A stretch of 32,000 bases of DNA from an uncultured Gammaproteobacteria bacterium (GTDB lineage: Bacteria; Patescibacteriota; Microgenomatia; Daviesbacterales; UBA10151), in the NCBI GenBank assembly GCA_964360965.1, contig CAYHYM010000001.1, forward strand, positions 30,001-62,000. The letters run 5' to 3'. How positions within the stretch are numbered: the stretch's first letter is position 1; each line of letters opens with the position of its first letter. A model generated the notes under the pieces. It had not been told where the DNA came from, made no database searches, and worked only from the letters and a program-made list of their open reading frames with translations. A program made the translations under genes and the position numbers. This document shows positions 3,450 to 30,033 of this stretch, one piece after another.

Positions 3450-5981
3450 ATGAACATTGGTAAAATTCAACCGGCTCCCATAATTGAAGAGATGCAGCGG
3501 TCCTATTTGGACTATGCTATGTCCGTCATAGTCTCTCGGGCCTTACCTGATGTCAGAGACGGCCTAAAACCGGTGCAGCGACGCATTATCTATGCTATGC
3601 ATGAGCAAGGATTGCACCATACCTCAAGATATCAAAAGTCTGCAGCAGTTGTTGGTGAAGTTTTAAAGAATTTTCATCCCCACGGAGATACCCCTGTCTA
3701 TGAAGCCATGGTGAGAATGGCCCAAAATTTTTCCATGAGATATATGCTGGTTGACGGCCAAGGAAATTTTGGCTCCATTGATGGAGATTCACCGGCAGCC
3801 ATGCGATATACTGAGGTAAAATTATCCTCAATATCAGAAGAATTACTGCGTGATATCAACAAAAACACTGTTGATTTTACGGATAATTATTCAGGAACAA
3901 CTCAAGAGCCCGTCCTGTTGCCATCCGTTATACCCAATCTGCTGCTTAATGGAGCCTCAGGTATAGCTGTTGGCATGGCCACCCAAATTCCACCCCATAA
4001 TTTGGGGGAAGTATGTGATGCCTTGGTCTATATGATAGAACACCCAACCAGAACTGTCATTGCGACCCCGAATGAAACAAGGGGGGATAACAATATATTT
4101 TCCTCTGATGCCACTGTTGAAAATTTAGTCCAGTTCATCAAAGGTCCGGATTTCCCCACAGGCGCTGCTATTTTTGATCAAACAGAAATTATGGCAGCTT
4201 ATGCAACTGGTAAAGGCAGGATTGTCATGCGCGCCAGAGCAGAAGTTGAGGAGACAGAGGCGGGCTCGCCTCGCTCCGCGGGCGGAGCGGGAAAAATGCA
4301 AATCATAGTCACGGAAATCCCATATCAGGTTAATAAATCCACTCTTATCTCAAGGATGGCCGAGCTGGTCAAAGATAAAAAAATAGAGGGGATTGCGGAT
4401 TTGCGCGATGAGTCTGACAGAACACAGATGGTGCGAATTGTGATCGATCTGAAAAGAGACGGGAAACCCCAATCAGTTCTAAATAATTTATACAAACATA
4501 CTACTATGCAGTCTGTTTTTAATGTCAATATAGTAGGCCTTCTTGATGGAGTGCCGCATCTTTTAAACCTAAAACAAATTCTGCAGGAGTTTGTCAACCA
4601 CCGCCAGAGGATTGTCAAAAGACGTTCCGAATTTGAACTGGCTGAGGCTAAAGCCAGGGAACACATCCTGCTGGGACTGACAATTGCCGTTGATCAAATA
4701 GACGATGTCATTGAAACAATTAAAAAGAGCAAAGACGTTGAGATGGCCAAAGTTAATTTAATGGCCAAATTTAAACTAACAGAGATTCAATCGGTGGCTA
4801 TTTTGGATATGCAGCTGCGGCGTTTGGCAGCATTGGAAAGGCAAAAAATTGAGGATGAGCTAAAAATGGTTAAAGAAACCATCGCCTATCTTGAGAATCT
4901 GCTGATCTCGCCTGAAAAAATCTTAAGAGTTATAAAAGATGAGCTGGTAAAAATTAAGCAAAAATATGCAGACCCGCGACGCACCAAAGTTTACAAACAA
5001 AAAGTGGGGGAATTTAATGAGGAAGATCTGGTAGCCAATGAGGTGACAATTGTCACCATTACAGAAGGAGGTTATATCAAACGTCAGTCTCCCGCCTCTT
5101 TCAGGACTCAGGCCAGGGGAGGAAAAGGGGTTTTGGGCATTTCCACCAAAGAAGAAGATGCGGTTTCCCATATTTTTTATACCCAGACTCACGATAATAT
5201 TTTATTTTTTACCAGTATTGGAAAAGTTTATCAGGTTAAAGTTTGGGATATCCCGGAAACACAACGGGCTGCCAGGGGCCAAGCTGTGGTTAATTTAATA
5301 AATATTGAGCAAAGGGAAAAAGTCACTGCTGTTTTAACCAGAAGAGAGAAAGGAGAGGCGGCCAAATACTTCTTTATGTGTACCTCCCGTGGTACTGTCA
5401 AAAAAACCGCTCTTTCAGAGTATGCCCATATTAGAAAGAACGGGTTGTTGGCCATAAAACTGGGAGCGGGTGATAACCTGGGCTGGGTTTACCCAACAAC
5501 AGGATTAGATGATGTGATAATTGTGTCCCAAAAAGGCAAATCTATCAGATTTTCTGAAAAGGGGGTTAAGCCAACACACAGGGATACTTCAGGCGTCAGG
5601 GGTATCAGACTTACAAAAGATGATCAGGTGGTATCTTTAAATATTATTGGGGATGGACAGGGAGAGCTGCTGGTTATTATGGAAAACGGTTTGGGTAAAA
5701 AGACCAATATTTCATCCTGGAAAAGACAAGGCAGAGGAGGACAGGGAGTGAAGGCTGCCCAGGTTACTGCCAAAACAGGGAATATTGTCACAGCATCTTT
5801 AGTTGATAAAACCATGGATACGCTGATTTTAACATCAACCAAAGGCCAACTGATAAAAATGGACCTTAAACAGGTGCCAACGCTGCAAAGACAAACTCAG
5901 GGAGTAATTTTGATGAGAGCAAAAGACGGGGAAAAAGTGGCAGCAGCCACAGTGGTATCATCCAAGGAGAAGGTAGAATGA
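3450..5981 (+). CDS. gyrA: DNA gyrase subunit A
   Basis: 843 aa ORF. Motifs include [22 protein letters not shown] (active-site Tyr), EIPYQVNK and C-terminal beta-pinwheel repeats. Confidence 0.97.
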
Positions 5982-7485: not shown

Positions 7486-8406
7486 TCAACGATTATTCCC
7501 CGAATGAAATGCCTTATGCACATCCTTTAGATGAGCATTGGTGACATGGGTGTATATTTGGGTGGTTTGGATGTTGGAGTGACCTAACATTTCCTGCACT
7601 GAGCGGATATCGGCTCCATTTATCAGTAAATCCGTGGCAAAAGAATGCCTTAAGGTATGGGGGGTGGCTTTGACAGGAAGACCTAAAGCTTTAACATATT
7701 TTTCCACAATTCGCTCAATTGAGCGGGAAGTAAGCCTCATAGCCTCACCGCTGTTTTGGGCATCTATCTTACCCTGATACCTGATAAAAAGAGGCTTGAG
7801 GGTATCTTTTCTTGCCATCAAGTATTTTTCCAAAAACTCAACTGCAGAATCAGATAAAAAAACTATCCTTTCTTTTCCACCTTTACCAACAACTCCAAAC
7901 TCGCGTCTGTTAAGATTTATGGTGTCCCTGTTTAAAGAAGCCAGTTCAGAAACCCGCAGTCCTGTTGAAAAAAGCGTCTCCAGAATGGCCCTATCCCTTA
8001 TGCCATCTTTTCTAGATGTATTCGGAGCATCAAGCAGTTGCTTAAGCGAAGCATCATCCAAAATCTTCAAAGGCCTTGGTTCTGCCTCTCCCAGTTCCAC
8101 TTTTTCAGGGGATAAAGTTTGGATATCTTGGCGGGCTAAATATCTTAAAAATGCCCGCAGAGCTATCATAAAATAGTTTTGGGTGACTCTTTTTAAGGAT
8201 CTTTTGGTCTTTGGATCCTGAAATCTTGCCAGATACAACCTGTATTTTCTGACCAAATTCAAATCTATATCTTTGGGATCAATATCATTCGAAAACTGCA
8301 AAAATCGTTTTAGATAATGATCGTAGTTTTTAATGGTTAACTGAGAGGCATTCCTCTCCAGCTCCAGATATTCTAAGAAATCAGTAATTAAGGCAGATAG
8401 GTTCAT
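7486..8406 (-). CDS. Tyrosine recombinase, XerC/XerD family
   Basis: I place the start at the MNLSALITDFLEYLE ATG (8406). The upstream 62 codons of track ORF 7486..8592 lie antisense-free inside the preceding gene and are Cys/Trp/Arg-rich junk. Motifs are GLRVSELASL, TPHTLRHSFAT and LGHSNIQTTQIYTHV. Confidence 0.88.
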   Translation of the reverse strand: MNLSALITDFLEYLELERNASQLTIKNYDHYLKRFLQFSNDIDPKDIDLNLVRKYRLYLARFQDPKTKRSLKRVTQNYFMIALRAFLRYLARQDIQTLSPEKVELGEAEPRPLKILDDASLKQLLDAPNTSRKDGIRDRAILETLFSTGLRVSELASLNRDTINLNRREFGVVGKGGKERIVFLSDSAVEFLEKYLMARKDTLKPLFIRYQGKIDAQNSGEAMRLTSRSIERIVEKYVKALGLPVKATPHTLRHSFATDLLINGADIRSVQEMLGHSNIQTTQIYTHVTNAHLKDVHKAFHSGNNR

Positions 8407-9113
8407 CACAAAAGTGCCAGGCCTAAAATTCCCAGGATGGTTAAGATTGAACCTACTATGGCCAGGGCAAAGGTAAACTGCTCTGTTCCTGCCGGGGGAA
8501 GAGCCTTTGGCGGCCCAACATAGGGAGCAGTAGTCCCTGAGGGTGTGGCCACACCAACACCAACTCCTGCTCCGGGCGCGCCAGCAGCGCAAGTGCCAGT
8601 CCCTATAGTATAATTTCCATTAACCACTGAGTTTAACACATCAGCCACTATATCCCCCCTTTGCACCACATTAGAATCTGAAGTTTTACTTTTATCATTG
8701 GAGTCAAAGTCAAATTTAATCTGACTGGCGCCAGTTGGAGCATCATCTTTAACTTTAAACTTAATGCTGGCCAAAGTTCCAGAACCCAAAAAACCAGTCG
8801 TGACAGAGGCCAAGCCTGAAATGGAAACTTTACCGTTGGACTCATCAATGCTATTTCCCGGGTAATCTGCATAAATTGATCCCACTGACATGGATGAAGC
8901 GCTAAACCTGGAAGTATCATATAAAACTATGGCATCAGTGCCATCAGTTTGAACCCCGCCAGTATTTAAAACAATATCCAATGAGAAGGTACAGCTTTTA
9001 TTAAAGGTACCCGAGGAAGGGGACAAAGACAGGGTGGCAGTCTGGGCAAAGGCAACCGGGCTTAATATAATTGTTATAAAAATTATAAAAATTATAATTA
9101 CTATAGTCTTCAT
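8406..9113 (-). CDS. Secreted cohesin-like domain protein with C-terminal LPPAG + TM anchor
   Basis: It has a classical signal peptide (..SPVAFA/QT). The cohesin-like pattern is LSLSPSSGTF...FSLDIVLNTGG..DGTDAIVLYD...GKVSISG...GTLASIKFKVK. The tail is KALPPAGTEQFTF followed by a 20 aa hydrophobic stretch. Confidence 0.7.
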   Translation of the reverse strand: MKTIVIIIFIIFITIILSPVAFAQTATLSLSPSSGTFNKSCTFSLDIVLNTGGVQTDGTDAIVLYDTSRFSASSMSVGSIYADYPGNSIDESNGKVSISGLASVTTGFLGSGTLASIKFKVKDDAPTGASQIKFDFDSNDKSKTSDSNVVQRGDIVADVLNSVVNGNYTIGTGTCAAGAPGAGVGVGVATPSGTTAPYVGPPKALPPAGTEQFTFALAIVGSILTILGILGLALL

Positions 9114-9664
9114 GGCAGAATATTTATCTCCAACTGATTAACTTTTTCCAAAATATCTGCTCCAGTGCCTGTTTCAGTCACATTAGTGTCCCCGGTTTTA
9201 CCTGGGGTAAAGTCCAATGAAACTTTGGTTAATCCTACAGCTTTGGCCACAAATGTTACTGCAGCAAACTGACCCTCCGGTATAACTCCGCCTTGCTGGG
9301 TGGTAATACCGGAGACAGATACTCTTCCCAAAGTCGCGTCAACCTTATTTTGCGGATAATCGGAAAAAATGGTCCCCAATACTGTTGGCTGGGCTGTTAA
9401 TAGTTTTGGGTCATAGGTAATTATCAAGTCCACCCCATCAACTTTTTTGGCCGAGGCGACATTTATAGTAACCAAAATTCTCTCCCTCACCCTAAGCTGA
9501 CTTTTATCAGCGGAGAGGCTGATGGAGGTTTGACTTGTAACAGGTACGGCAACAGTTGATGGAGGAGTTGGTTTAACCAAAGACCATCCGGCCCACAAAA
9601 CTTCTGCCAAAATTACCATACCCAGCACTATAAAAATGTTTCTTTTCACCAGATATTTTTGCAT
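9110..9664 (-). CDS. Membrane-anchored cohesin-like domain protein
   Basis: 184 aa ORF with an N-terminal TM helix. The cohesin-like pattern is ISLSADKSQL..ILVTINV..VDGVDLIITYDPKLL..GRVSVSG..GQFAAVTFVAK. It overlaps the downstream gene by ATGA. Confidence 0.65.
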   Translation of the reverse strand: MQKYLVKRNIFIVLGMVILAEVLWAGWSLVKPTPPSTVAVPVTSQTSISLSADKSQLRVRERILVTINVASAKKVDGVDLIITYDPKLLTAQPTVLGTIFSDYPQNKVDATLGRVSVSGITTQQGGVIPEGQFAAVTFVAKAVGLTKVSLDFTPGKTGDTNVTETGTGADILEKVNQLEINILP

Positions 9665-9683: not shown

Positions 9684-9986
9684 TCAACTGCCGAAGTCAA
9701 GGGCGGGCAGTTGAATTAAAGTCGCACCGGGTGAGGGGGAAGGTGATGGACTAACTTGTGCTGACGGAGAAGAGGAGGGGGCTGTTTCCTTGGTAATTTT
9801 TAATTTTACATTAGAGTTGGTAGTTTCTGTGATGACCTGACCTGTATCATTCACAAATTCCACCTTGGGGATAAAGGCTGCCCGAGGCCTAAAAATTTGG
9901 GTCTGACGTACCAAATACAAAGTAGCCGGAATAGCCACCAAGATAATTACAAAGCCTATTAAAATTAATGTTTGTCTTTTAGTCAT
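9684..9986 (-). CDS. Anchor-module-only paralogue (TM + LVRQTQIFRPRAA + short beta segment + Pro/Ser linker)
   Basis: 100 aa ORF. Its first ~66 aa are near-identical to the N-terminus of ORF 10020..11288. A strong SD (AAGGGGGT) lies 6 nt upstream. It may be a truncated duplicate. Confidence 0.5.
   Translation of the reverse strand: MTKRQTLILIGFVIILVAIPATLYLVRQTQIFRPRAAFIPKVEFVNDTGQVITETTNSNVKLKITKETAPSSSPSAQVSPSPSPSPGATLIQLPALDFGS
9790..9986 (-). repeat. Copy A of duplicated 197 nt N-terminal anchor module (copy B is 11092-11288)
   Basis: The two copies are colinear from their start codons. Bases 9790-9866 are 100% identical to 11092-11168 (77 nt) and the flanks are diverged. Confidence 0.9.
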
Positions 9987-10019
9987 TAACTTACCCCCTT
10001 ATAGATTAACCGACTCTTT

Positions 10020-11288
10020 CTACAGTGTCAACCTTTTACTTGTTCTCATCACATTATCAAAGTCTCCATGGATATCCCACCAATTTCTCAATTTTTTACC
10101 CTGATATGTTTTAGTGTTATTTTTTCCCGGCATGTTTTGCAGCATCCAAATTTGATAATTCAGTGCAGAGTTATTATTTATCGGATCTATATCCTGACAA
10201 CCCCAAATTTGACAACTAATATCTGTCAGCTGACCTAAAGTATCCGGATTCCAATCCAGACAATCAGATTTTTGGGGGGTTGGATTATTCCTGTCATATT
10301 CTGATCTGGCATTTGGTGGATTGTGCGCTGAACCGCACCTGCCATTCACCCCCAAAGTCTGCGGGAAATTTGGTCCCTGGAATTTATCTCTGTATAAACT
10401 TTTATCAACAGCATCAATTTCTGCCTCTATTTGATGTCCCCAAGACTCCAAAGCTTCTGCAGTAAACCTTTGATAATTAAATGTGTACACACGATAAGTA
10501 TTTGCACAAATTGGCATATCATTCTCTCCGCCGCTATTTGAGATATCCCCAAACGGCCCTGACATTTTTGATTCATAAATATCAAGATAGGGGTGACTGT
10601 CTGCTTTTGGCGAACCCTGATAACCCCAAAGCCATACCTCTTTTACCCCCTTACTGTCAACATAGTCGCAAATGTTGTGAGTTTGCATGATGCCCCGGTA
10701 GTCAGGGTAGGTTGGTTTATCCAACCGGGCTTTAATCGGTACTGCCTGCAGGTATTCTTTGGTATCAACGATTGTATAACGGAGAACCGGTTTTGCATTC
10801 GGATCTTTATATCCCAAATATGTGCTGGCTTTCTCCAAAGATATTTTGAGCTGGCTGGTCACATCATCAGTTCTTTTTTTGATCAGTTCATATGAATCAC
10901 CAATATCTCCTGTCACAGTAATATCAATACACTGCTGTTGGGGATTTAAGGAACAGGGAACAGAAGGAAAATATTTAATCAGCAACACATTTATATTAAA
11001 ACTTGTATCCAAGCCTGGTTGGAAAGTTGGAGAAGGGGATGGAGATGAAATTTGTGTGGGAGAAGGACTAGGAAAAGTTGTCACTGCTTCTTTGGTAATT
11101 TTTAATTTTACATTAGAGTTGGTAGTTTCTGTGATGACCTGACCTGTATCATTCACAAATTCCACCTTTGGAATAAAAGCTGCTCTGGGTTTAAAAATCT
11201 GAGTCTGCCTGACCAGATACATGGTGGCAGGAATGGAAATAAGAATAATGACGAAGCCTATGAGAATAAGTATTTGTTTTTTCGTCAC
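10020..11288 (-). CDS. Anchored extracellular protein, unknown ~330 aa Cys/Trp-rich C-terminal domain
   Basis: 422 aa ORF with a GTG start and AAGGGA upstream. It has a TM helix plus LVRQTQIFKPRAA motif, then a PSPSP linker. No family recognised. Confidence 0.7.
   Translation of the reverse strand: MTKKQILILIGFVIILISIPATMYLVRQTQIFKPRAAFIPKVEFVNDTGQVITETTNSNVKLKITKEAVTTFPSPSPTQISSPSPSPTFQPGLDTSFNINVLLIKYFPSVPCSLNPQQQCIDITVTGDIGDSYELIKKRTDDVTSQLKISLEKASTYLGYKDPNAKPVLRYTIVDTKEYLQAVPIKARLDKPTYPDYRGIMQTHNICDYVDSKGVKEVWLWGYQGSPKADSHPYLDIYESKMSGPFGDISNSGGENDMPICANTYRVYTFNYQRFTAEALESWGHQIEAEIDAVDKSLYRDKFQGPNFPQTLGVNGRCGSAHNPPNARSEYDRNNPTPQKSDCLDWNPDTLGQLTDISCQIWGCQDIDPINNNSALNYQIWMLQNMPGKNNTKTYQGKKLRNWWDIHGDFDNVMRTSKRLTL
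11092..11288 (-). repeat. Copy B of duplicated N-terminal anchor module
   Basis: See copy A. Confidence 0.9.
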
Positions 11289-11305
11289 TTTTCACTTTTC
11301 CCTTA

Positions 11306-13183
11306 TCACTTTAACAATATGCTGGCCGTTTGAGGAGGTATTGGTCCCCAAGCGCCACTTTCAAAAAACTGCACATACGCTGACTTTAATCCTGGTCCAC
11401 CTGTTAAAGTCAGATCCAAAGTGAAAACTGTTGCTGTACCCATATCACTTTGGGCTAAAACAGTGGCAAAATTAGGATCAAAGGAAACCCTGAAAGGCAG
11501 CAGGCCTGAAGGCACAGCAGAGGCGGTGGCTGTGGGGGAGGCTGAAGAAGTTGCCACCGGCGAGGCAGATGCAGTTGCCACAGGTGATGCGGCAGGACCA
11601 CCTACAGGGGGTTCTTTTGGTAGAGGGGGAGAGAACTGCTCATCAGATTGGTTGATATTCTGCCTCATACAGGCATAATCAATGGAATTAATCCTGCCAT
11701 CCCCATTAAAATCACCTGTTTTGACCACGTCTTTTACCAAACTCCACTGGCGGGTTAATTCTGCCCGATCAAAAGCATTTATTTTTCCATCAGCCTTGAT
11801 GGCTGGAGCAATATCACCAACCAGCAAAGTTACAGCCTCCAAATTCTTGGTACCGGTTTTGGTTTCAAATTCCACTTTTTTAGAGAGGGTATTGGGTGCT
11901 TTAATAACCAGGGCATACTTTTTATTTTTCTCCAGCTTTGGTGTAAAACCTGTCACTTTGCCATCTTTGTCCAGTTTGACTGTTTGTTCCAGAACCGGCT
12001 CCGGGTTTTCCGACTCGGCGCTGACCAGTACATTGGCAAAAATCTTCACTAACACATTATCCACTGCCAAATTCCCGCCAGCGCTCTTACATTGGGTTAG
12101 AGCGGCAAAGGTGACAGTGGTAGTGCCCACCGAACAGTCGGCTCTGGCAGTTTTGCTGTCATCACGGGTCAGCTCCACATCATTTTTGCCTTCCAATTTT
12201 TTATCCAAAATAGCTGTCACCACCCCTGTTGATTCATTCCAACTCAAAACTTCCGCATCAGTTCCACCCACCTTAACTTTGCCTTTACCTTTGGGGCCAA
12301 TATTGGTACCGGTGATGGTGATGCTGGTACCGGATCCGGAAATGGCATGAGTACAGCTGGCCTCAGAAATAGCAGGATTGGGGATAAAGTTGATCATCCG
12401 ATCTCTTCTTGAAATAACACCAGTATTTGATATAAAGAGGGCATGAATAGTATTTCTGCCAGGTTTGGTTAAGGTATGGGGTATCAGCTTGGGATGAGTA
12501 TCATAAAGTTGAGCGCCTTTATCTGCGCAAGAGGTAGCAGTAATTGGCCCTTTATCAGATATAAAGAAACAGGCAGTAGAAACAGGTGGAGTTGGGGATG
12601 GTGATGGGCTAGGTGATGGACTGGGACTTGGTGAAGGTGAAGGAGACGGTGAAGGAGACGGAGCCTGGTTGACTGTCAGGGCAGAAGGGGAAACAGACAG
12701 GGTTTCCAATGATAAATCTGATTTAACATTTTTCAGCAAGGAGGTATTCAGTATATCAATGCCATACTGATTGGGGGATTGGGATGTAAACACAAGTTCT
12801 ACAAACGAGGTAGTAACTGCCGCAGGCAATGTAAAGCTGGCTGCGGTGTCCAATTCTCCAACCAGTTTAATCTGGCCGTTTAAATTGATCTGGGCCAGAT
12901 TTTGGTCTCCATCGCCCTCCAATACATCAGATTTTTTGCCAACTTTGTAGGTAATGCTTTTCAGCTTAGCCTTAACTGGATCAAATTTAACATTAATTTG
13001 ATACATCCTTATCTTTAAGGCGGCAGTTGAAGTAAGCTGAGCATTGACTGTGAAATCCTGCCCTGCCGGCGCTACCAAGGCAGGCGGATTAAATGAGGAA
13101 GAAACTGTCTGGCCAAATGCGGCCCTGGGCAAGCCTAGTGTAGCAAGTAACAATAAAATAATAACAGTAAATTTTCTTTTCAT
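11306..13183 (-). CDS. Secreted multidomain protein: cohesin-like + (SP)n linker + IPT/TIG-like + beta-sandwich + dockerin-like repeats
   Basis: 625 aa ORF with signal peptide ..LPRAAFG/QT. The TIG-like segment is SGSGTSITITGTNIG..VKVGG. The dockerin-like Ca-binding pair is GDIAPAIKADGKINAFDRAEL ... GDFNGDGRINSIDYACM. Confidence 0.75.
   Translation of the reverse strand: MKRKFTVIILLLLATLGLPRAAFGQTVSSSFNPPALVAPAGQDFTVNAQLTSTAALKIRMYQINVKFDPVKAKLKSITYKVGKKSDVLEGDGDQNLAQINLNGQIKLVGELDTAASFTLPAAVTTSFVELVFTSQSPNQYGIDILNTSLLKNVKSDLSLETLSVSPSALTVNQAPSPSPSPSPSPSPSPSPSPSPSPTPPVSTACFFISDKGPITATSCADKGAQLYDTHPKLIPHTLTKPGRNTIHALFISNTGVISRRDRMINFIPNPAISEASCTHAISGSGTSITITGTNIGPKGKGKVKVGGTDAEVLSWNESTGVVTAILDKKLEGKNDVELTRDDSKTARADCSVGTTTVTFAALTQCKSAGGNLAVDNVLVKIFANVLVSAESENPEPVLEQTVKLDKDGKVTGFTPKLEKNKKYALVIKAPNTLSKKVEFETKTGTKNLEAVTLLVGDIAPAIKADGKINAFDRAELTRQWSLVKDVVKTGDFNGDGRINSIDYACMRQNINQSDEQFSPPLPKEPPVGGPAASPVATASASPVATSSASPTATASAVPSGLLPFRVSFDPNFATVLAQSDMGTATVFTLDLTLTGGPGLKSAYVQFFESGAWGPIPPQTASILLK
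12601..12643 (-). repeat. (Ser-Pro)n linker DNA, near-identical to 15707-15749
   Basis: gtgatgggctaggtgatggactgggacttggtgaaggtgaagg matches 15707-15749 at 42 of 43 positions. Confidence 0.85.
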
Positions 13184-13188
13184 ACTTT

Positions 13189-14115
13189 TTAACGCTTCCA
13201 GATATTCAAATCATCAGCGTCTATTTGACCGTCACCGTCAAAATCAGGGTTAACAGAGACAGGTATTTTACCTAAGTTTACCGCAGTCAGCCAGTAAAGA
13301 TAATCATTTTCATCTTTCACTCCGTTACCATCAGCATCACCTAGGGTTCTTGATGGTCTGTTGCACCAGCTATTTTTATCCTGGGTAGAGGGCACAATGT
13401 TGTAGATAGTTGCCGGAAGAGAACATTGTATCGGACCGCTTCCAGGAGGTAGTCCGTAATCTACCCCTGTCAGTTTGGTAAACTGGCAAGGAGAGGAGCA
13501 GCTGTTATCGGCTTGACACCCACATCCTGTCACAGGCGGGAGCGGAGAAGGCGAAGGAGAAACAGCAGGCCCTGTCACCATATATCTCCCTTCAATGTTT
13601 TCTGCAGTTATTAAAGTTGTTTCCGCTCCGGAGGCCACCAGTTCAAAGGCAGGGGCAAACCTGACAGTTGATACCCCTCCTGCCCTGGCCTTAAACTTGA
13701 GCGTTCCCAAAATCAGAACTCCTGAAGAGATGGGATCTTTCGACTTTCTTACAGCAGTAAAGCGGAACTGGCCCAAGGGATCATCCACAGTATTTCTTAA
13801 AGTGTCAAAACTTGAAAGAGCAGGGTCAAATGTGACAAGCTGTAAGATATTTGTGTTGTAGGCAAGCTGTATGTTTACTCCGGTAATATCCTGGTTTCGT
13901 GCATTCATCTTCAGCTGCACCTCAAATTCTTCTCCCGTATTTTTGCTGGATTCAGCAGGAGAGAGAGACAGTGTTACTGCGCCAGTAGGCACCGCAGCCC
14001 TACTTCTTAGGTCCTGAATCTGCCTGACCAGATATAAAGTTACTGGTATGGCCACAATCAGAATAGCCACTACCATAAACGGTATAATTTTTATCAATTT
14101 ATCTCTATCTATCAT
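13189..14115 (-). CDS. Anchored cohesin-like + dockerin-like protein
   Basis: 308 aa ORF with a TM helix and LVRQIQDLRSRAA motif. The cohesin-like pattern is VTLSLSPAES..FEVQLKMNA..ITGVNIQLAYN. The C-terminus GDADGNGVKDENDYLYW...DFDGDGQIDADDLNIW is dockerin-like. Confidence 0.7.
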   Translation of the reverse strand: MIDRDKLIKIIPFMVVAILIVAIPVTLYLVRQIQDLRSRAAVPTGAVTLSLSPAESSKNTGEEFEVQLKMNARNQDITGVNIQLAYNTNILQLVTFDPALSSFDTLRNTVDDPLGQFRFTAVRKSKDPISSGVLILGTLKFKARAGGVSTVRFAPAFELVASGAETTLITAENIEGRYMVTGPAVSPSPSPLPPVTGCGCQADNSCSSPCQFTKLTGVDYGLPPGSGPIQCSLPATIYNIVPSTQDKNSWCNRPSRTLGDADGNGVKDENDYLYWLTAVNLGKIPVSVNPDFDGDGQIDADDLNIWKR

Positions 14116-15686
14116 AGGTAACCATTTTTCCAGATACTGAAATCCACGGTATTGATTGAGTCGTCGCAGTTGAAGTCTGCCTTTTTACTCTTGGTTAAGG
14201 AATGTAACTCCCTGAACCAGATGTTAAAGTCTGAAAGATCCACATCACCATCTTTGTCAGCATCACCCTGGGAGGGGACACAAACCGCTGGTGTTGGGGA
14301 AGGGGAAGGAGAGGGAGAAGGGGAGGGGGAAACTGTAGGTTGAGGAGCTACACAAAAACCTCTATTTGGTTGATTGGCTTCACAAACAGGTTTTTGGGGG
14401 TCAACACAAAAAGAAGCATCTGTTTGACATTGACTGCCATGACATATCAGACAATCCCTAGCCTTGGAGGCTGAGACGCATTGGGCATCAATACATTTAT
14501 CTTTAAATTCCCTAAAATCAATTGACACCTTTCTTCTACATCTGTCATCCTCATCATCTTTGGTGGCTGCAAAATTATCACAATTAGGATCTTCTGTCTG
14601 TGTTTTGGGGTTATTTCTACAAACTCCACACTGGCCAAAGTTATAGGTATTTAGGATGGGGGTAGTGGTAGTTACACAGGCAAAACAAGATTGGCCTGAA
14701 ACAGCACAAGTCAGCTGGCTGGCTGGAACCCCTTGATAAGCCGGGGTATCAGAAGATGAAAGGCAACCAATAGTACCGGCTGGTTGGCACTGATATGTCC
14801 TTTCAGCTCCAAAAAGATTGCCTGCGGATACTCCCACAGGACAAGTGGGAACACCTAGGGCCCCACCGGGTAGGGTGGTAAAAACAATCAGACTAAGGTT
14901 ACACTGCCCACCAAATTCCTGACTTTTATCATTAAACATTCTCCACCTGAAGGGATATGTCCCAGCAGTTGTGGGCCCAATTGTGACATTAAAGTCCTTT
15001 TGATTGCCTGGTTCAATTGTGCTACCTACACTAATATTGGTTTTATCTGGCTTGAATGCCAACTCAGCACCTGAACCACCAGTGAATCTTAAGGAATAAT
15101 TTGATTGCCAGTTGTTAGTAACACCCCCAGTAGGGTCTTGAGTATTTCTTAAAATCATGGTGATGTTATAAGATTTGTTAATCACAACAATACCAGGGTG
15201 TTTATCATAAGGTTGGCCATCAATGGTGACGTCTGTACAGTCTGCCCTGTCTGCACCACCCACACCTACATTGCCAGATGAAGGTGAAGGTGGAGGTGGT
15301 GGTGGTGAGGCTGCAGCGGGACACTGCTTTGGTTCTGTACAACTGGAAGCATCACACTGCGGTTGATCACCTGGATCATTAGGATCGGCCACACCGTCAC
15401 TATTGATGTCCAGGGTGTTATCCGTATAAGTGGCAAAAGCCGTTAGATAACAACCGTTGGCATCTACAGATCCACAACTACCAACCGGCTGACCAACTTG
15501 TGGCTGGTTTGGCCTATTACACGGGAAAAGACCATCTGGGGCAGGACTCATAATCTCTGCTGCCTTTGATTTAAGTTGAGTTTGTTGTTGGACCAGTCTT
15601 ACTCCCACCAGAAGCCCCACAGCCAAAACCCCCAAAATCAACAGGGCAATGATATTTCTTTTAGATAATAATTTTGTTGCTTCCAT
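14112..15686 (-). CDS. Anchored Cys-rich protein with TSP3-like Ca-binding segment, NBR1-type Ig-like module and C-terminal dockerin-like repeats
   Basis: 524 aa ORF with a TM helix and LVQQQTQLKSKAA motif. Other elements are DINSDGVADPNDPGD, PGNQKDFNVTIGPTTAGTYPFRWRMFND, many CxxC pairs, an (SP)n linker, and GDADKDGDVDLSDFNIW...DFNCDDSINTVDFSIW. Confidence 0.65.
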   Translation of the reverse strand: MEATKLLSKRNIIALLILGVLAVGLLVGVRLVQQQTQLKSKAAEIMSPAPDGLFPCNRPNQPQVGQPVGSCGSVDANGCYLTAFATYTDNTLDINSDGVADPNDPGDQPQCDASSCTEPKQCPAAASPPPPPPSPSSGNVGVGGADRADCTDVTIDGQPYDKHPGIVVINKSYNITMILRNTQDPTGGVTNNWQSNYSLRFTGGSGAELAFKPDKTNISVGSTIEPGNQKDFNVTIGPTTAGTYPFRWRMFNDKSQEFGGQCNLSLIVFTTLPGGALGVPTCPVGVSAGNLFGAERTYQCQPAGTIGCLSSSDTPAYQGVPASQLTCAVSGQSCFACVTTTTPILNTYNFGQCGVCRNNPKTQTEDPNCDNFAATKDDEDDRCRRKVSIDFREFKDKCIDAQCVSASKARDCLICHGSQCQTDASFCVDPQKPVCEANQPNRGFCVAPQPTVSPSPSPSPSPSPTPAVCVPSQGDADKDGDVDLSDFNIWFRELHSLTKSKKADFNCDDSINTVDFSIWKNGYL

Positions 15687-15689
15687 ATT

Positions 15690-16088
15690 TTATATTCCAG
15701 GTGATGGTGATGGACTAGGTGATGGACTGGGACTTGGTGAAGGTGAAGGGCTTGGACTGGGGCTGGGAGACAGTGATGGAGAGGGGGATGGGGATGGTGG
15801 GAGTGGCAAATTAATTCCTTCCTCAGATTTTAAGAAAGGTGAATCCAACACCACATTTATTTCAGAATCTGTAGATGTACATTCACCAACAGCCGGACAA
15901 TTAACACCTGATTTTCCTTCTATTGCTCTAAAGGAGATCGGATCACCACCGGCTGCTTTGGATTTTAATTGCTGTTGGGTTTGGACCAGTTTAATCCCCA
16001 AAGGAATGGCCACAATCATAATGGCCAAAATCAAAAATGAAATGATGTTCTTCCTGGAAAAAAGACTGTTGTCTGAAGAATAATCCAT
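15690..16088 (-). CDS. Anchor-module-only protein ending in a long (Ser-Pro)n tail
   Basis: 132 aa ORF with a TM helix and LVQTQQQLKSKAA motif. The last ~35 aa are SPSPSP... and the stop lies 3 nt before the next gene's start. Confidence 0.5.
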   Translation of the reverse strand: MDYSSDNSLFSRKNIISFLILAIMIVAIPLGIKLVQTQQQLKSKAAGGDPISFRAIEGKSGVNCPAVGECTSTDSEINVVLDSPFLKSEEGINLPLPPSPSPSPSLSPSPSPSPSPSPSPSPSPSPSPSPGI

Positions 16089-16121: not shown

Positions 16122-17573
16122 TCAATCTGTTTTTAACTTGGTCAAATCTACAATCACAAAATCATGGGTCTGATGGATAATCTTATATTTTTCCATGACT
16201 TGCTTTGTCTGATCATCAAGAGCCACAGACACATAATGGGTGGCCCCCAGCTTAATCAGCTCGGTCACACTCAGGTAAACAGAAGACCAGCCAGGTCGAT
16301 CCAGCTGGTATAAAAAAGCGGTATTTCTCTCAAATGGAGCAATCACCCTGGCTTCTTTGGGTAAAATTTCTCTGGCCACATCTCCAGCTTTCATAATCTC
16401 ACCATGATTAATCTGATAAAAACCCCTCACCTGATACCAGCCAAAAGCAAAGGTTAGAGCAATCAAAGCTAAGGTAGCAGGAATGGTGATCCAGGCAGTC
16501 AACCATCTGCCGGAGGCAAAAATTAGAAAATCTACTGAGCGGGCCATAAACACAGCCAAAATCGGCACCAGGGGAATCTGATAATAATCATGTTCCACAT
16601 TGCCGCGAGCCAAAATCAGCACATATAAACTTAAACCCAGCAGCCACCAGTGGAAAAACCAGGTTTGACCTTGTTTCGGCTTCAAAAATACTCCCAGGGT
16701 AGCCAGGAAAAAACCAGCCACAGTTAAAATTTCCCTGCCCAGTCTTTCTGCAATAATCCAATGTAAGAAAGCTCCTTTGTAGCGGATGTTGTCACCATTA
16801 AAAAGCCAGGCGGCAGAAGGGATGCCTTCAGGATATTGCAGCATCCATAAACGCCATGATAACAGAGGTACAGTGGTCAAAGCAACCAGCAGATACAGCT
16901 TAAGGTTAGTCAGGGCCCGCAATCCCCGGTAATGGAAAGATAAATATGCCATCGGCATCAATAGATAAAGCGTGTATGGTTTGGTGAGAATGGCCACATT
17001 CAAAAACAACACAGTCAAAACAAAAAAAAACCAGGTTTCTTTTTCCAAAAACCTGATAAAAAAATAAAGGGCTGACAAAGAGGCAAAGATCATCATCGGC
17101 TCCGGCATAAACACTCTGGAGAAATAAATATTATACGGTAAAAAGGCCAAAAAGAGAGCTGAGATAAGAGCAACCCTGATCCCTAAAAATTTTTTGACCA
17201 GAAGATAAAGGAGAATAATTGACAAAAGTGAGAAAACAACTGACATTTGCCGGCCATAGATTACCTCCACCTGTCCCATGATCAGATATACCACTGCCAC
17301 CAGACCGCTATAGATGGGAAATTCCACAAAGCGGAAACGCTGCGGGTTGGGACGGGAATCGTGGGTAACAGGAGCCATGTCATCATATTTAGGATGCAAA
17401 AAATCAAAGCCTTCTTTGATAAAATTTCTGGACACAGCTGCCGTGTCAACCTGCCTCCAGGAATGCCAGTCACCCAGGGGAATGTTGATCCGGTACTGGC
17501 GGATCCAAAAGGCCCCAATTAAAATGATTATCAAAAAGAGCAGGGGACTGGAAAAAACCTTTTTAAGTACCAT
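16122..17573 (-). CDS. GT-C fold glycosyltransferase, family 39 (PMT_2/ArnT-like)
   Basis: About 12 TM helices, with an N-terminal loop GDWHSWRQVDTAAVSRNF typical of PMT_2-type proteins. I prefer the MVLKK ATG at 17573, because the track start at 17597 would place TGCTATAAT inside the ORF. Confidence 0.8.
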   Translation of the reverse strand: MVLKKVFSSPLLFLIIILIGAFWIRQYRINIPLGDWHSWRQVDTAAVSRNFIKEGFDFLHPKYDDMAPVTHDSRPNPQRFRFVEFPIYSGLVAVVYLIMGQVEVIYGRQMSVVFSLLSIILLYLLVKKFLGIRVALISALFLAFLPYNIYFSRVFMPEPMMIFASLSALYFFIRFLEKETWFFFVLTVLFLNVAILTKPYTLYLLMPMAYLSFHYRGLRALTNLKLYLLVALTTVPLLSWRLWMLQYPEGIPSAAWLFNGDNIRYKGAFLHWIIAERLGREILTVAGFFLATLGVFLKPKQGQTWFFHWWLLGLSLYVLILARGNVEHDYYQIPLVPILAVFMARSVDFLIFASGRWLTAWITIPATLALIALTFAFGWYQVRGFYQINHGEIMKAGDVAREILPKEARVIAPFERNTAFLYQLDRPGWSSVYLSVTELIKLGATHYVSVALDDQTKQVMEKYKIIHQTHDFVIVDLTKLKTD

Positions 17574-17579
17574 AAAGCC

Positions 17580-17588
17580 ATTATAGCA
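17580..17588 (-). promoter_or_regulatory. Extended -10 (TGcTATAAT) 6 nt upstream of the GT39 ATG, so the mRNA is probably leaderless
   Basis: The minus strand reads tgctataat-ggcttt-ATG. Confidence 0.5.
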
Positions 17589-17665
17589 GCAAGACAAATT
17601 AGACAGTATCTTGCAAAATCATACATTAAACAAAAACGCCGTAATTAATATTGTCCGACAAGGAC

Positions 17666-17842
17666 CAGTATATCTGTGAGTCAGTATATCAGTGTTTCAG
17701 TGGATTAAAAATATTTGATAATTTGATAATATGGAAGTGTGATAAAAGATGTGAATATAAACTTTTGTCAAAAAGAATAAACTCCTTGCACAAATACTGG
17801 CGCTTTTAACACCGATACACAGATATACTGAAAGATACACTG
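17666..17842. repeat. Inverted iteron-like words GTATATC / GATA(T/C)AC flanking a ~120 bp AT-rich core
   Basis: CAGTATATC occurs at 17666-17674 and 17682-17690. GATACAC is at 17814, GATATACTG at 17822-17830 and GATACACTG at 17834-17842. There is a perfect 13 bp inverted repeat, 17666-17678 against 17818-17830. The core contains the tandem TTTGATAAT x2. Confidence 0.7.
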
Positions 17843-17935
17843 AAACTCCGAGCCCCTAGAAGGGCCTAAAAACGGCTGGTTAGGGGAGGGCCGCTATCTG
17901 CCATCATCTAGTTTAGGCTGTCAGGAAGGGCCAAA

Positions 17936-17970
17936 TTGGTAGTTAGTAGTTTGTAGTTGGTAGTTGGTAG
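17936..17970. repeat. Five tandem heptamers TTNGTAG
   Basis: The sequence reads ttggtag ttagtag tttgtag ttggtag ttggtag. Confidence 0.85.
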
Positions 17971-18665
17971 AAAACAGCAAATTTTTGAAGGGAAATATGA
18001 GAAATTAGGCACACAAAAATGCTTGATAAAAAACTTATGCCTTTTATAATTAAATTTATCCTGAGCAAGCCTGAAGGACTCCTCCCTAATCCCACTTCTC
18101 TGACATCGCATAACCATGATTGTCCGACATTATTATATTTGGGGAAGAATGCGGAAAAGAGAGAATAGCCTTGGTCTTCTGATACGTGAGTAAAGAATCT
18201 CTAGATTACTCTCATGATCCTTCGCTAACGCTTGGGATGACAACTAGAAGAGCACCTCTCCTCCAAGAGGCTTCGGGTATTCTATGTAAGAAAGAATAAG
18301 CAATTATATGCACTAACTGACAGATTACTTTTAATCTTCAAGCGTCCATCCTTTTGCCGTAGGCAAAAGTGTACAGAGCTAATAACGAGAGTAAGATCGT
18401 GTGAGTCCTTAGAGTACGGAGTGCTATTGTGACAACGATCACAATAGTAGCGCAGTACTCGGGGGCTCGTAGTGCACGAACATCGTGAGAGCACGAAGAG
18501 ACCCATAGTTTTCCACATTTGAACTTGGCAAATATATAAAACTATATCACCTATAGTTTTCACGAAATATCTCATAATTTTTCACAGTTCGACTTCGCTC
18601 ACTGCAGGCACTCCTCTACTTCCAATTTGTCTTAACAATCCAATTCTCCATTGTCAATTGATTCT

Positions 18666-19448
18666 CTATCCTATCCAGGAAGTTGTTAAAAATGCTACCA
18701 TAAAAACAGCCATCCCAATAATCAGGTATTCCCATATTACTCTCCTATTCAACCTGTTTTTTAACCATCCTGTCAAAAGTCCCAGTAAAACATACATGGA
18801 AGAAGAAACAGCCAGGGAAAACATCGGGGCTTTGATCGGCCAAAAGGAAAAAGCTAAAGCCAGCTCCCCCAAAACCAAACTTAAAATAAATGTCTGTCCC
18901 AAAATTGCAGTCCCCATACTATCCTCCATCTCCTGAGCCCAAATAAATTGCATGATCAGGGGAAAGCTGATCACAAAAACAAATCCTCCATTTGCCCAAA
19001 ATGGCAAATTAAAAGCAGCCAGTACATTTATGATAAAAAAAGCAGTTATCAGGGTAAATAAAAAATTGGCTGTTGAAGCAGCGCGGTACAAAGGTATGGT
19101 CCTTAATGATGCCACATTAAAGACATTTTGAGAAAGCAGAAGTAAATAAAAAGTCAGACCAAAAAAAAGTCCTACAGGCAGCCTAGTAAGCCAGCGCACA
19201 GGCAGTAAGAAATAAAAGGAGGCCACAGCCAAAGCATAAAGCGTGGGCAAGATCAAAAGTACCACTGCTTTGATGGGACTTAGTCCCTCCCAAAGAGCCC
19301 ACAAAGACAAAAAATAAGCGCTGAGCGCAAGTCCTGCTATAAAGCGAAATCTTAAGTCAAAATCAACCAGTTGGGTGGAAAAAAGGCCCAAAGTTAAAAG
19401 TATGGAAGATATGATAATTTTCTGACGTTTGGTTAAATTTAGATTCAT
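18666..19448 (-). CDS. Polytopic membrane protein, unknown function
   Basis: 260 aa from the MNLNLTKRQ ATG, which overlaps the ruvC stop (ATGA). It has about 7 hydrophobic helices. Confidence 0.7.
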   Translation of the reverse strand: MNLNLTKRQKIIISSILLTLGLFSTQLVDFDLRFRFIAGLALSAYFLSLWALWEGLSPIKAVVLLILPTLYALAVASFYFLLPVRWLTRLPVGLFFGLTFYLLLLSQNVFNVASLRTIPLYRAASTANFLFTLITAFFIINVLAAFNLPFWANGGFVFVISFPLIMQFIWAQEMEDSMGTAILGQTFILSLVLGELALAFSFWPIKAPMFSLAVSSSMYVLLGLLTGWLKNRLNRRVIWEYLIIGMAVFMVAFLTTSWIG

Positions 19449-19978
19449 TTTGCTGCCATCTTCAACACATGACAAATGGCAATGGCCAAGGCATCTGTGG
19501 CATCATCCAAATGTCCGCCGCGCCATGTGACTTTTAGCTTCCTTCTCTTTCTTCCGTTACTCCCCAGAAACTTCCTTACCCCATCATGGACTTGGGTCTT
19601 ATCTGCCCTGCCTGATCCTGCCACCATCAGCTTCACCTGAAGTCCGGTATAATCTTGAATGGGAACCCTATGCTCTGCTGCAGCCAGCATGATCACTCCC
19701 CTAGCTTGACCTACCATGATGGCAGTTCTGGTATTGGCCCCAAAAAATAACATCTCGGAAACCATCTGATCCGGCTTGTATTGTTTTATTATTTTGGTCA
19801 GCTCTGAATGAATCATATGCAGTCTATCCTGCATTAATCTTTCTTTGGGGGTGTATATATTGCCATAAGTTATAAGTTCAATTCCATATTCAAATTCCCT
19901 ACCCAAAATATCATCAGGAACCTTAATTACCCCATATCCGGTTGTAGCTGTTCCAGGATCAATGCCTAGTATTATCAT
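19445..19978 (-). CDS. ruvC: Crossover junction endodeoxyribonuclease RuvC
   Basis: The N-terminus is MIILGIDPGTATTGYGVI. An RNase H-like fold pattern and the C-terminal DDATDALAIAICH are present. Confidence 0.93.
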   Translation of the reverse strand: MIILGIDPGTATTGYGVIKVPDDILGREFEYGIELITYGNIYTPKERLMQDRLHMIHSELTKIIKQYKPDQMVSEMLFFGANTRTAIMVGQARGVIMLAAAEHRVPIQDYTGLQVKLMVAGSGRADKTQVHDGVRKFLGSNGRKRRKLKVTWRGGHLDDATDALAIAICHVLKMAAK

Positions 19979-29987: not shown

Positions 29988-30033
29988 AATTTGCTATGTA
30001 TGCCCATTATAGTATTAGAGGGGGTGATAAAAA

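Follow-up and report, generated by a model that had tools for sequence, protein, structure and literature searches.

What is the long N-terminal leader that recurs on five proteins of one gene cluster in a Daviesbacteria-like bacterium, and does it do anything that an ordinary signal peptide would not do? The question is raised by a stretch of DNA of 32,000 nucleotides (positions 30,001 to 62,000 of contig CAYHYM010000001.1, GenBank assembly GCA_964360965.1), in the following called the window. A preliminary description made from the sequence had noted that five of its open reading frames (ORFs), those at 9684, 10020, 13189, 14112 and 15690, begin alike. All five are on the minus strand and start as described, as found by both a profile hidden Markov model (HMM) of the leader and a regular-expression search. 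The leader is a widespread, unnamed export or anchoring tag; it represents no new principle and belongs, as a lineage-specific variant, with conserved export signals of the kind of YSIRK, ESPR and class III signals. We prefer the explanation that it is a dedicated export module which would be processed at an invariant Ala, releasing the passengers for the cohesin-dockerin assembly of a surface complex. The probability that we assign to this explanation is roughly 45%, somewhat short of even odds.

The leader begins with a K/R-rich n-region that contains the conserved sequence [ST]-K-[KR]-[NQ]-[IL]-I, continues with a hydrophobic helix of about 21 residues ending in (V)AIP and closes with L-[VA]-[QRK]-Q-x-Q-x-[LF]-[KR]-[SP]-[KR]-A. 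A six-frame scan with a regular expression and an HMM scan of all ORFs of the window located the motif in the five ORFs and at no other place in the 32 kb. The N-termini quoted in the preliminary description match except for that of 10020, which reads MYLVRQTQIFKPRAA (MYLV) and not LYLV. The common part, correctly recognised as such, is longer than had been described: it includes the n-region, and 9684, 10020 and 15690, three of the five, additionally have in common a β-hairpin segment of about 35 residues past the Ala. The neighbouring genes 8406 and 11306, which had been set apart from the five, do encode short classical signal peptides (Table 1).

An HMM of 43 positions, derived from a 40-sequence alignment, was searched against 1.84 billion representative proteins (clusters of 50% identity). 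It matched 1,562 protein clusters at E ≤ 1e-3 and 91 at E ≤ 1e-10. In all 150 matches listed the match starts at residues 1-40, and the proteins are 49-1,461 residues long. The likeness of the leaders is far beyond chance. A sequence logo was drawn from 193 non-redundant leaders and numbered from the invariant Ala as position 0, where Ala occurs in 100% (205/205 matched proteins). The n-region has S/T at -34, K (76%) at -33, K (63%) or R (30%) at -32 and N (65%) or Q (18%) at -31; positions -33/-32 are K/R in about 90% of the leaders. The hydrophobic stretch of about 21 residues extends from -30 to -10 and includes A (76%; A/S/G 94%) at -18, I (80%) at -17, P (93%) at -16, G/T/A/S (94%) at -14 and L (98%) at -11, so that a small-xxx-small segment, A-I-P-x-G/T, is conserved within the helix. 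The residues that follow are Q (60%) or R (26%) at -9, Q (83%) at -6, L (50%) or F (43%) at -4, K (69%) or R (20%) at -3, S (67%) or P (28%) at -2, R (46%) or K (40%) at -1 and, past the Ala, A (43%), S (17%) or T (13%) at +1. The information content amounts to 2-4.3 bits per position as far as the Ala, is 1.7 bits at +1 and falls below about 1 bit from +2. Pro is found at +1/+2 in 0/193 leaders and at +4 in 28%. The segment from -9 to 0, just outside the membrane, has a net charge of +2.3, compared with +1.5 in the n-region.

The earlier statement that a generic signal peptide would not be conserved to this degree is borne out by these 2-4.3 bits per position over 37 positions, in front of unrelated passengers and in many species. 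It was also right that the motif is not a recognised named signal. No model of Pfam-A or NCBIfam matches the leader at E ≤ 0.1, and comparison with YSIRK, ESPR, KxYKxGKxW, the Tat twin-arginine signal and the lipobox showed that its n-region lacks an RR pair and its boundary lacks a Cys. No published description of the leader was found in the literature on the motif, on the secretomes of the Candidate Phyla Radiation (CPR), on cohesin/dockerin proteins of Microgenomates or on Daviesbacteria.

AlphaFold2, supplied with 36 homologues of 15690, predicts for this protein one continuous helix over residues 12-40 at a mean predicted local distance difference test score (pLDDT) of 67. LKSKAAGGDP is modelled as a coil (low confidence, mean pLDDT 56 at residues 41-50), past which four short strands and a disordered Ser/Pro tail follow. 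The hairpin past the Ala is found in a large share of the members; it comprises about 35 residues of the pattern x-I-x-F-x-G..C-x4-C-T-T-T..[IV]-x-[IV]-x-L-x-S-P-[FL]-G-P-P, and an alternative variant reads FIPKVEFVD..NVKLRITKE. An end-motif [ST]-P-x?-[FLWY] stands 15-75 residues past the Ala in 80/193 members. Many complete proteins of 80-100 residues consist of leader and hairpin alone (P0006-P0057; compare 15690-15953 and 9684-9878 of the window), with the hairpin, where it is not the alternative variant, terminating in ..SPF or ..SPFGPP. These small proteins are usually the first in the arrays, and in many large members this hairpin makes up the N-terminal domain.

Is it the peptide or the DNA that is conserved? 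Among 91 distinct leader-coding segments the mean nucleotide identity is 53%, and an identical amino acid is encoded by the same codon in 41.2% of cases, compared with 38.6% expected from codon usage. Since synonymous codon use is at random expectation, selection acts on the peptide and not on the DNA, which excludes recent duplication, gene conversion, an RNA element and a vsp-like recombination site as the cause of the similarity. In the window, 9684 and 10020 are the sole pair with extended DNA similarity (82% nucleotide identity over the first 204 nucleotides); the other copies are 67-74% identical over about 50 nucleotides. Judged by these values, the paralogues are ancient and diverged and not recent duplicates.

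Further loci were obtained from the contigs of several members and by searching a metagenome collection for a degenerate DNA pattern that encodes AIP-x4-L-x-[QRK]-x2-Q-x-[LF]-[KR]-[SP]-[KR]-A; the scan yielded 41 loci, 37 of which had leader-bearing ORFs according to the HMM. Two or more leader genes are present in 28 and three or more in 13 of the 47 loci with at least one, with a maximum of six in 7.5 kb. Consecutive leader genes have the same orientation in 52/52 cases and are separated by a median gap of 11 nucleotides. Clustering of the neighbour families identified a Xer-like recombinase in 21 loci, DUF5656 in 15, RuvC in 14 and YebC in 12, in the gene order yebC-ruvC-DUF5656-about 1 kb of non-coding DNA-[small leader proteins, large leader proteins, cohesin proteins]-xer-amidase. 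Of the 24 loci of 6 kb or more, 18 contain one or more of the synteny markers XerC, DUF5656 and RuvC. A leader-bearing S8 pro-subtilase and an M64 peptidase, encoded in other genomic contexts, are exceptions. The possibility raised earlier, that the motif is confined to local paralogues, is thus correct insofar as most leader genes are co-operonic paralogues of one syntenic cluster, but these are ancient and diverged and some lie outside the cluster. The leader is ancient and widespread yet used mainly by one operon. The identical 308-residue protein is encoded, together with several other genes of the window, on a contig from a Hainich groundwater 0.1 µm metagenome. Relatives of the leader genes are found in metagenome-assembled genomes of Candidatus Daviesbacteria and Microgenomates, including a complete 820-kb chromosome (three loci in a scan with a narrower alignment), and the named DUF5656 homologues belong to Daviesbacteria or Patescibacteria. 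The leader is specific to Daviesbacteria-like Microgenomates of the CPR.

The passengers indicate on which side of the membrane the leader acts. A Pfam survey of 64 long leader-bearing proteins identified Dockerin_1 in 21/64, TIG in 8, CarboxypepD_reg in 6, SdrD_B in 4 and cohesin in 2, and in single cases Peptidase_S8 with an I9 propeptide, Peptidase_M64, CARDB, CBM_4_9 and BNR. Most passengers contain Ig-like or unassigned domains; matches to glycoside hydrolases or carbohydrate-binding modules (CBM) were only single and weak among the 64. The recognisable domains are all extracytoplasmic, which is why the N-terminus must lie inside and the C-terminus outside, and the leader is some kind of export signal. 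Dockerin-bearing proteins, as known from cellulosomes, and pro-subtilases are normally released proteins.

The proteins of the window agree with this picture. The passenger of 14112-15686 consists of an Ig-like domain and a C-terminal dockerin (Dockerin_1 just under the cut-off). In 13189-14115 the first strand of the cohesin domain begins 7 residues past the Ala and the C-terminus is dockerin-like. The small protein 15690-16088 has, past its leader, a Cys-x-Cys hairpin segment and then a Ser/Pro-rich tail, and the passenger of 9684-9986 is a hairpin with a Ser/Pro tail. The C-terminal 330 or so residues of 10020-11288 matched no Pfam model and had no relative in a sequence search of the PDB. 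PF00963 cohesin matches were obtained for 8406, 9110 and 13189 and weakly for 11306, which also matches Dockerin_1; the same division of cohesin and dockerin over separate co-encoded proteins recurs in loci L006, L009 and L010. Three types of N-terminus, the classical signal peptide, an EVIWAGW anchor and the leader, occur side by side, and each is stable across orthologues. As ordinary signal peptides coexist with the leader in the operon, and since the whole 40 or more residues of the leader are under protein-level selection, it does more than a generic signal peptide.

Under the preferred explanation, the n-region and the hydrophobic region would drive a Sec/YidC-type insertion that leaves the N-terminus on the inner side of the membrane and brings the passenger to the outer side. 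Beyond the membrane the Gln-rich helix would continue for about 10 residues and expose the basic joint, [KR]-[SP]-[KR]-A↓[A/S/T] (the arrow marks the putative cleavage), at which an enzyme of the signal-peptidase type would cut. The passenger would thereby be freed, and its dockerin or cohesin would then dock onto the membrane-anchored cohesin proteins of the same operon. The leader may be recognised by a dedicated peptidase or one of relaxed specificity, or it may target or time the export of this set of proteins.

Processing at the Ala has to be weighed against an uncleaved type II signal-anchor whose helix packs the operon products side by side or onto a partner membrane protein; this would build a single surface complex embedded in the membrane, whose basic subunits would be the small proteins of 80-130 residues. 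We regard such an anchor as the main rival, and a serious one, though less likely than processing. For processing and against the anchor speaks the sharp end of conservation at the invariant Ala, which is followed by a small residue, the typical P1/P1' boundary of a protease. The joint has the pattern S-x-A↓A in two thirds of the members. In several proteins just 3-7 residues lie between the Ala and a folded cohesin domain. In cohesin paralogues with the leader the Ala stands 3-6 residues ahead of the first cohesin strand (..LRSRA↓AVPTGA-VTLSLSP, ..LQSRA↓DVDS-VTLSLSP, ..FKPRA↓TGEI-VTFSLVP), close to where their paralogues with classical signal peptides have the AxA (0-3 residues ahead, as in ..AFA↓QT-ATLSLSP), whereas the true anchors of the operon, those of the 9110 type, separate helix and cohesin by a Pro/Thr/Gln linker of 20-30 residues. 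A C-terminal dockerin would be redundant on a protein that is already anchored, and three basic residues on the outer side are contrary to the positive-inside rule. Verified Gram-positive sites have Ala at P1' in 36%, Pro at P1' in 0% and Pro at P4' in 14% (PMC2638155); the joint of the leader resembles them in the preference for Ala at +1, the lack of Pro at +1 and the frequent Pro at +4.

Other properties count against processing, several of them in favor of the anchor. A log-odds matrix that covers P7 to P3' was constructed from 168 verified Gram-positive signal peptidase I sites; with it the score of the Ala site is +3.3 bits for Ser at P3 and -6.4 bits for Pro at P3, compared with 0.6-11.4 for eight classical sites of the same clusters and a background of -9.6 ± 6.5 (99th percentile 4.5). 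The Ala is the top-scoring site in just 70/193 proteins. Pro at P3, found in 28% of the leaders, occurs in 0/168 of the verified sites. The core of about 21 residues (-30 to -10), which has the length of a membrane anchor, and the polar segment of 10 (-9 to 0) exceed the h-region of about 14-16 and the c-region of about 5-7 residues of classical signal peptides in the same loci, and exported proteins do not usually have such a net charge in the flank just outside the membrane. The small residues at -18 and -14 (94% each) with Pro at -16 in 93%, together with the Gln-rich segment, are no less compatible with helix-helix packing than with cleavage. The continuous helix predicted by AlphaFold2 over residues 12-40 would suit an anchor, as do the conservation along the entire leader, unlike that of ordinary signal peptides, and the position of the small, leader-only proteins of 80-100 residues at the head of the arrays. 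Among the conserved neighbours in the 47 loci, inspected as neighbour families and by Pfam annotation, genes for a peptidase, sortase, rhomboid or pilus assembly were not found.

By canonical signal peptidase I criteria the joint is weak or atypical, and if cleavage occurs, the enzyme is probably one of relaxed or dedicated specificity. Of the cleavage site proposed in the preliminary description, it can be said that it is plausible and in the same place as the AxA of the paralogues; its matrix score is weak. The two explanations are not mutually exclusive. The dedicated peptidase or sortase-like partner that had been proposed along with the cleavage site did not come to light in the 47 loci, and DUF5656 has no protease-like fold.

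Simple inheritance, in which the leader has no special function and is merely the ancestral signal peptide of a paralogous family, spread by tandem duplication and domain shuffling with occasional gene conversion, seems to us improbable. It would account for the fact that the great majority of leader genes are paralogues arranged in tandem within one syntenic cluster and for the 82% identity of the 5' ends of 9684 and 10020. It does not explain why 37 leader positions keep 2-4 bits across 1,562 clusters while the passengers have diverged beyond recognition, why the synonymous sites are randomised, which indicates selection on the peptide and not recent conversion, or why the classical signal peptides of the same operon lack such conservation and all three types of N-terminus remain stable across orthologues. 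The pilin-like assembly considered in the preliminary description, a class III signal cut on the cytoplasmic side by a prepilin-type peptidase with the helix as the core of a filament, is very unlikely, although small and large proteins of one operon do have a common Pro-containing N-terminal hydrophobic helix. In type IV pilin signals position -1, immediately preceding the hydrophobic helix, is Gly (or, in archaea, Ala/Ser), and those of bacteria have Glu at +5. At the corresponding boundary the leader has Asn (65%) or Gln (18%) and no Gly/Ala, its +5 position is Leu/Ile/Val and not Glu, and conservation reaches 30 residues past the boundary to the Ala on the outer side. The five proteins of the window match no pilin or prepilin-type model of Pfam or NCBIfam (E ≤ 0.1), and neighbour families and Pfam annotations revealed no prepilin peptidase, assembly ATPase or platform gene within about 10 kb in the 47 loci. 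With the wrong residues at the boundary and no model matches, the class III reading was rejected. Least credible of all is a DNA-level element, in which the Xer-like recombinase encoded next to the cluster would recombine the common 5' ends, by analogy with the phase-variable vsp/vpma surface-protein loci of Mycoplasma. A tyrosine recombinase gene does flank the cluster in 21 loci, and a second one is present in some, but all 52/52 consecutive pairs are co-oriented without inverted copies, and the leader-coding DNA is on average only 53% identical, with random synonymous codon use; codon analysis and gene orientation rule out this role for the coding segments.

A more far-reaching proposal, which we consider rather unlikely, combines the two activities in a new surface structure of Microgenomates. 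The leader would be both a membrane-embedded assembly helix and a processing site, with a dedicated peptidase or insertase recognising the A-I-P-x-G helix and [KR]-[SP]-[KR]-A. As part of the same proposal, the small leader-hairpin proteins of 80-130 residues would be the repeating subunits and the large dockerin/cohesin proteins accessory subunits. The logic of such a structure would be that of pilins, yet it would be unrelated by descent to type IV pilins, sortase pili or TasA fibres.

How does the leader compare with known systems? Like the Sec-type signal peptides that signal peptidase I cleaves in monoderm bacteria, it has a basic n-region, a hydrophobic core and a polar end, Ala at -1 and usually Ser at -3 (counted from the joint), Ala/Ser/Thr and never Pro at +1, and extracytoplasmic passengers; its length of 36-45 residues coincides with the second length mode (41 residues) reported for Gram-positive signal peptides. 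It is unlike them in the core of about 21 and the polar segment of about 10 residues, the three basic residues before the site and the 28% Pro at P3, and unlike ordinary signal peptides in being conserved in sequence throughout. With YSIRK-G/S, the ESPR of autotransporters and the KxYKxGKxW of accessory-Sec glycoproteins it has in common a conserved motif within the export signal of a subset of the surface proteins of a lineage, which implies that the signal does more than simply export, and its Ser/Pro-rich passengers, which may be glycosylated, are reminiscent of accessory-Sec substrates. The leader is not similar in sequence to these signals, its conserved part lies in and after the hydrophobic core and not in the n-region, and no SecA2/SecY2 genes were seen in the neighbourhoods of the leader genes. 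According to an account of the tapA-sipW-tasA operon of Bacillus subtilis, its leaders are handled by the dedicated non-canonical SipW and are poor substrates of the housekeeping enzyme (PMC10269814). To that extent TasA/TapA-SipW is similar, as operon-specific surface or matrix proteins have leaders that make poor substrates; it differs in that no peptidase gene lies in or beside the leader gene cluster in the 47 loci and that cleavage is here only predicted.

Type IV pilins and archaeal class III proteins, such as those of the Sulfolobus bindosome, are likewise small and large co-encoded proteins with a common Pro-containing N-terminal helix, but the leader lacks the G/A(-1) cleavage motif and Glu+5, matches no model and has no genes for prepilin peptidase, ATPase or platform protein nearby. 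The operon recalls cellulosomes in its mixture of cohesin-only anchored proteins, adaptor-like proteins with cohesin and dockerin, and dockerin-bearing passengers. It differs from them in that the passengers are mostly Ig-like or unassigned domains instead of glycoside hydrolases, the host is a CPR bacterium with a small genome, and N- or C-terminal membrane helices serve as anchors instead of SLH domains or sortase. The Vsp/Vpma/Vsa loci of Mycoplasma also contain tandem surface-protein genes with a common leader next to a tyrosine recombinase gene (there of the Xer1 type). They are conserved at the DNA level, and inversion requires inverted copies, in contrast to the leader, which is conserved at the protein level only, in genes that are all co-oriented, and has no lipobox.

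DUF5656 is the sole conserved membrane-protein neighbour of the clusters and in this respect a candidate partner. The protein of ten helices is conserved at about 68% identity across the best 120 of 925 matches, and its AlphaFold2 model has a predicted template modelling score of 0.76. It has no sequence relative in the PDB, and Foldseek detected no fold match (best E 0.59) and no protease-like fold. Its gene, which overlaps ruvC, is 0.6-3 kb away from the closest leader gene. A role as processing enzyme was not retained, as a PDB or fold relative is lacking, the gene is distant and overlaps ruvC, and nothing ties it to the leader. The overlap with ruvC suggests that the neighbourhood may be simply syntenic.

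The features of the window and the counterparts in other loci are listed in Table 1.

Table 1. Leaders, operon members and flanking elements of the window, followed by corresponding elements of other loci (positions in the respective locus)
Feature	Positions	Strand	Remarks
Leader of 15690-16088 (132-residue small protein)	15954-16088	-	residues 1-45; invariant Ala45; HMM E 8.5e-24
Leader of 14112-15686 (524-residue protein)	15561-15686	-	residues 1-42; invariant Ala42; HMM E 2.4e-18
Leader of 13189-14115 (308-residue protein)	13996-14115	-	residues 1-40; invariant Ala40; HMM E 9.8e-16
Leader of 10020-11288 (422-residue protein)	11181-11288	-	residues 1-36; invariant Ala36; HMM E 4.2e-17
Leader of 9684-9986 (100-residue small protein)	9879-9986	-	residues 1-36; invariant Ala36; HMM E 9e-19
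Operon member with cohesin-like, TIG and dockerin domains	11306-13183	-	classical short signal peptide ..PRAAFG↓QT
Operon member, cohesin protein	9110-9664	-	different conserved N-terminal anchor KRNIFIxLG..EVLWAGW; Pro/Thr-rich linker, then cohesin
Operon member, cohesin protein	8406-9113	-	classical signal peptide SPVAFA↓QT; conserved C-terminal hydrophobic tail
Xer-like tyrosine recombinase	7486-8406	-	conserved downstream neighbour of the cluster, 21 loci
PMT_2-family glycosyltransferase	16122-17597	-	directly upstream of the first leader gene; this genome only
Conserved non-coding region between DUF5656 and the cluster	17598-18665	-	contains the dif-like site
dif-like site	18101-18128	-	GTCGGACAAT-N6-TATGCGATGTCA
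Second copy of the left arm of the dif-like site	17650-17660		about 470 nucleotides downstream of the site
DUF5656 polytopic membrane protein	18666-19475	-	conserved upstream neighbour, 15 loci
Counterpart of the non-coding region, L003	8739-9931
Counterpart of the non-coding region, L004	8951-9988
Counterpart of the non-coding region, L005	8819-9700
Counterpart of the non-coding region, L009	2958-3871
Counterpart of the non-coding region, L022	3188-4014
Counterpart of the non-coding region, L030	4575-6038
Counterpart of the non-coding region, L037	11274-11906
Extra ORF, L018	6454-7473		between non-coding region and cluster
Extra ORF, L021	5387-6442		between non-coding region and cluster
Extra ORF, L050	3526-4497		between non-coding region and cluster
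Extra ORF, L013 / L020	10507-11451 / 4216-5160		between non-coding region and cluster

Two of the cohesin proteins have conserved ends of their own. The tail of ORF 8406-9113 (window 8406-8500) reads ..G-[TS]-x-E-[LF]-T-x-x-[LV]-A-I-V-G-S-x-L-T-I-L-G-I-L-G-L-A-L-L, directly followed by the stop codon, and is kept in the orthologues of L004, L005, L009, L010, L013, L027 and L037; some copies have LPPAG or LPEAG just ahead of it. This end may be a C-terminal sorting or anchor signal; it lacks a basic tail and is not a standard LPXTG signal. The N-terminus of 9110 (window 9560-9664) and of its orthologues in L005, L006 and L009 has the pattern [KR]-[KR]-N-[IL]-F-I-x-L-G-x-[IV]-[IL]-x-x-E-V-[IL]-W-A-G-W (in the window KRNIFIVLG..EVLWAGW), with a Glu within the helix and an n-region that resembles that of the leader; a linker rich in Pro, Thr and Gln precedes the cohesin. 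The Xer ORF as listed (7486-8592) starts with TTG at 8592 and overlaps gene 8406-9113. As homology begins only at about residue 63 (MNLSALITDFLEYLELERN), the true start is probably the ATG at about 8406, with a one-base overlap with the upstream stop codon.

The PMT_2 gene, whose product resembles protein O-mannosyltransferases, lies 34 nucleotides upstream of the first leader gene, and the enzyme could be a candidate for glycosylating (SP)n or Ser/Pro linkers. It was rejected as a partner of the leader, as it is not a conserved neighbour and was not found beside the cluster in other genomes. The window also encodes gyrB, gyrA, ruvC, yebC, an amidase and an IS200-type transposase. Between gyrB and gyrA are two adjacent genes for proteins of 212 residues, 1498-2136 and 2141-2779; the product of the latter is a Peptidase_C39_2 or papain-like cysteine peptidase and that of the former is weakly NlpC/P60-like. 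Both are devoid of hydrophobic segments and are probably cytoplasmic.

The gap between DUF5656 and the cluster, about 0.6-1.4 kb in length, has no conserved ORF and yet is conserved in nucleotide sequence across many loci, with blocks of 85-330 nucleotides at 70-84% identity and a block E of about 95 nucleotides in 19 loci. It matched no Rfam family even at E ≤ 1. A consensus structure was not found by RNAalifold, the folding z-scores were only -1.9 and -2.6, and covariation support for the one hairpin drawn by hand was modest, with 78.5% of the cells paired, compared with 74% in shuffles, 12/500 of which were as good. The region may serve as regulatory DNA or as a 5' leader, or encode an RNA not described before. 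The dif-like site that it contains was compared between the window and seven related loci (L001 duplicates the window): its arms, which form imperfect inverted repeats, are near-invariant, and its centre of 6 nucleotides varies. The site resembles the core of bacterial dif sites, ATAAT-N6-TTATG. The cumulative guanine-cytosine (GC) skew turns at the same place, about 18 kb, and the Xer-like gene is on the other side of the cluster. Between 1 and 6 kb the GC skew is mostly positive, at 7-18 kb it is close to zero and beyond 18 kb it is negative, and gene orientation switches at about 6.1 kb, where the plus-strand gyrA converges with the minus-strand genes. Based on the orientation switch and the course of the skew, the window probably spans the replication terminus. 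In several related loci an extra ORF is inserted between the non-coding region and the cluster (Table 1). The N-termini of the encoded proteins resemble a tyrosine recombinase, which suggests that the spot is a hot spot of recombination or integration.

CPR bacteria, or Patescibacteria, are thought to live attached to other cells. To our knowledge, almost nothing has been learned about the export and organisation of their surface proteins outside a few cultivated Saccharibacteria. In Daviesbacteria-like Microgenomates, the products of one conserved surface operon of cohesin and dockerin proteins are recognisable by a tag of about 43 residues. Domain libraries miss this tag, and signal-peptide predictors likely handle it poorly because of its long helix and the Pro at P3. 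Its profile HMM provides a handle for finding candidate attachment proteins in metagenomes. If a dedicated enzyme or a role in assembly proves true, the tag would define a lineage-specific pathway of surface display; if it is merely a long signal peptide, it would still improve the annotation of more than 1,500 clusters of hypothetical proteins.

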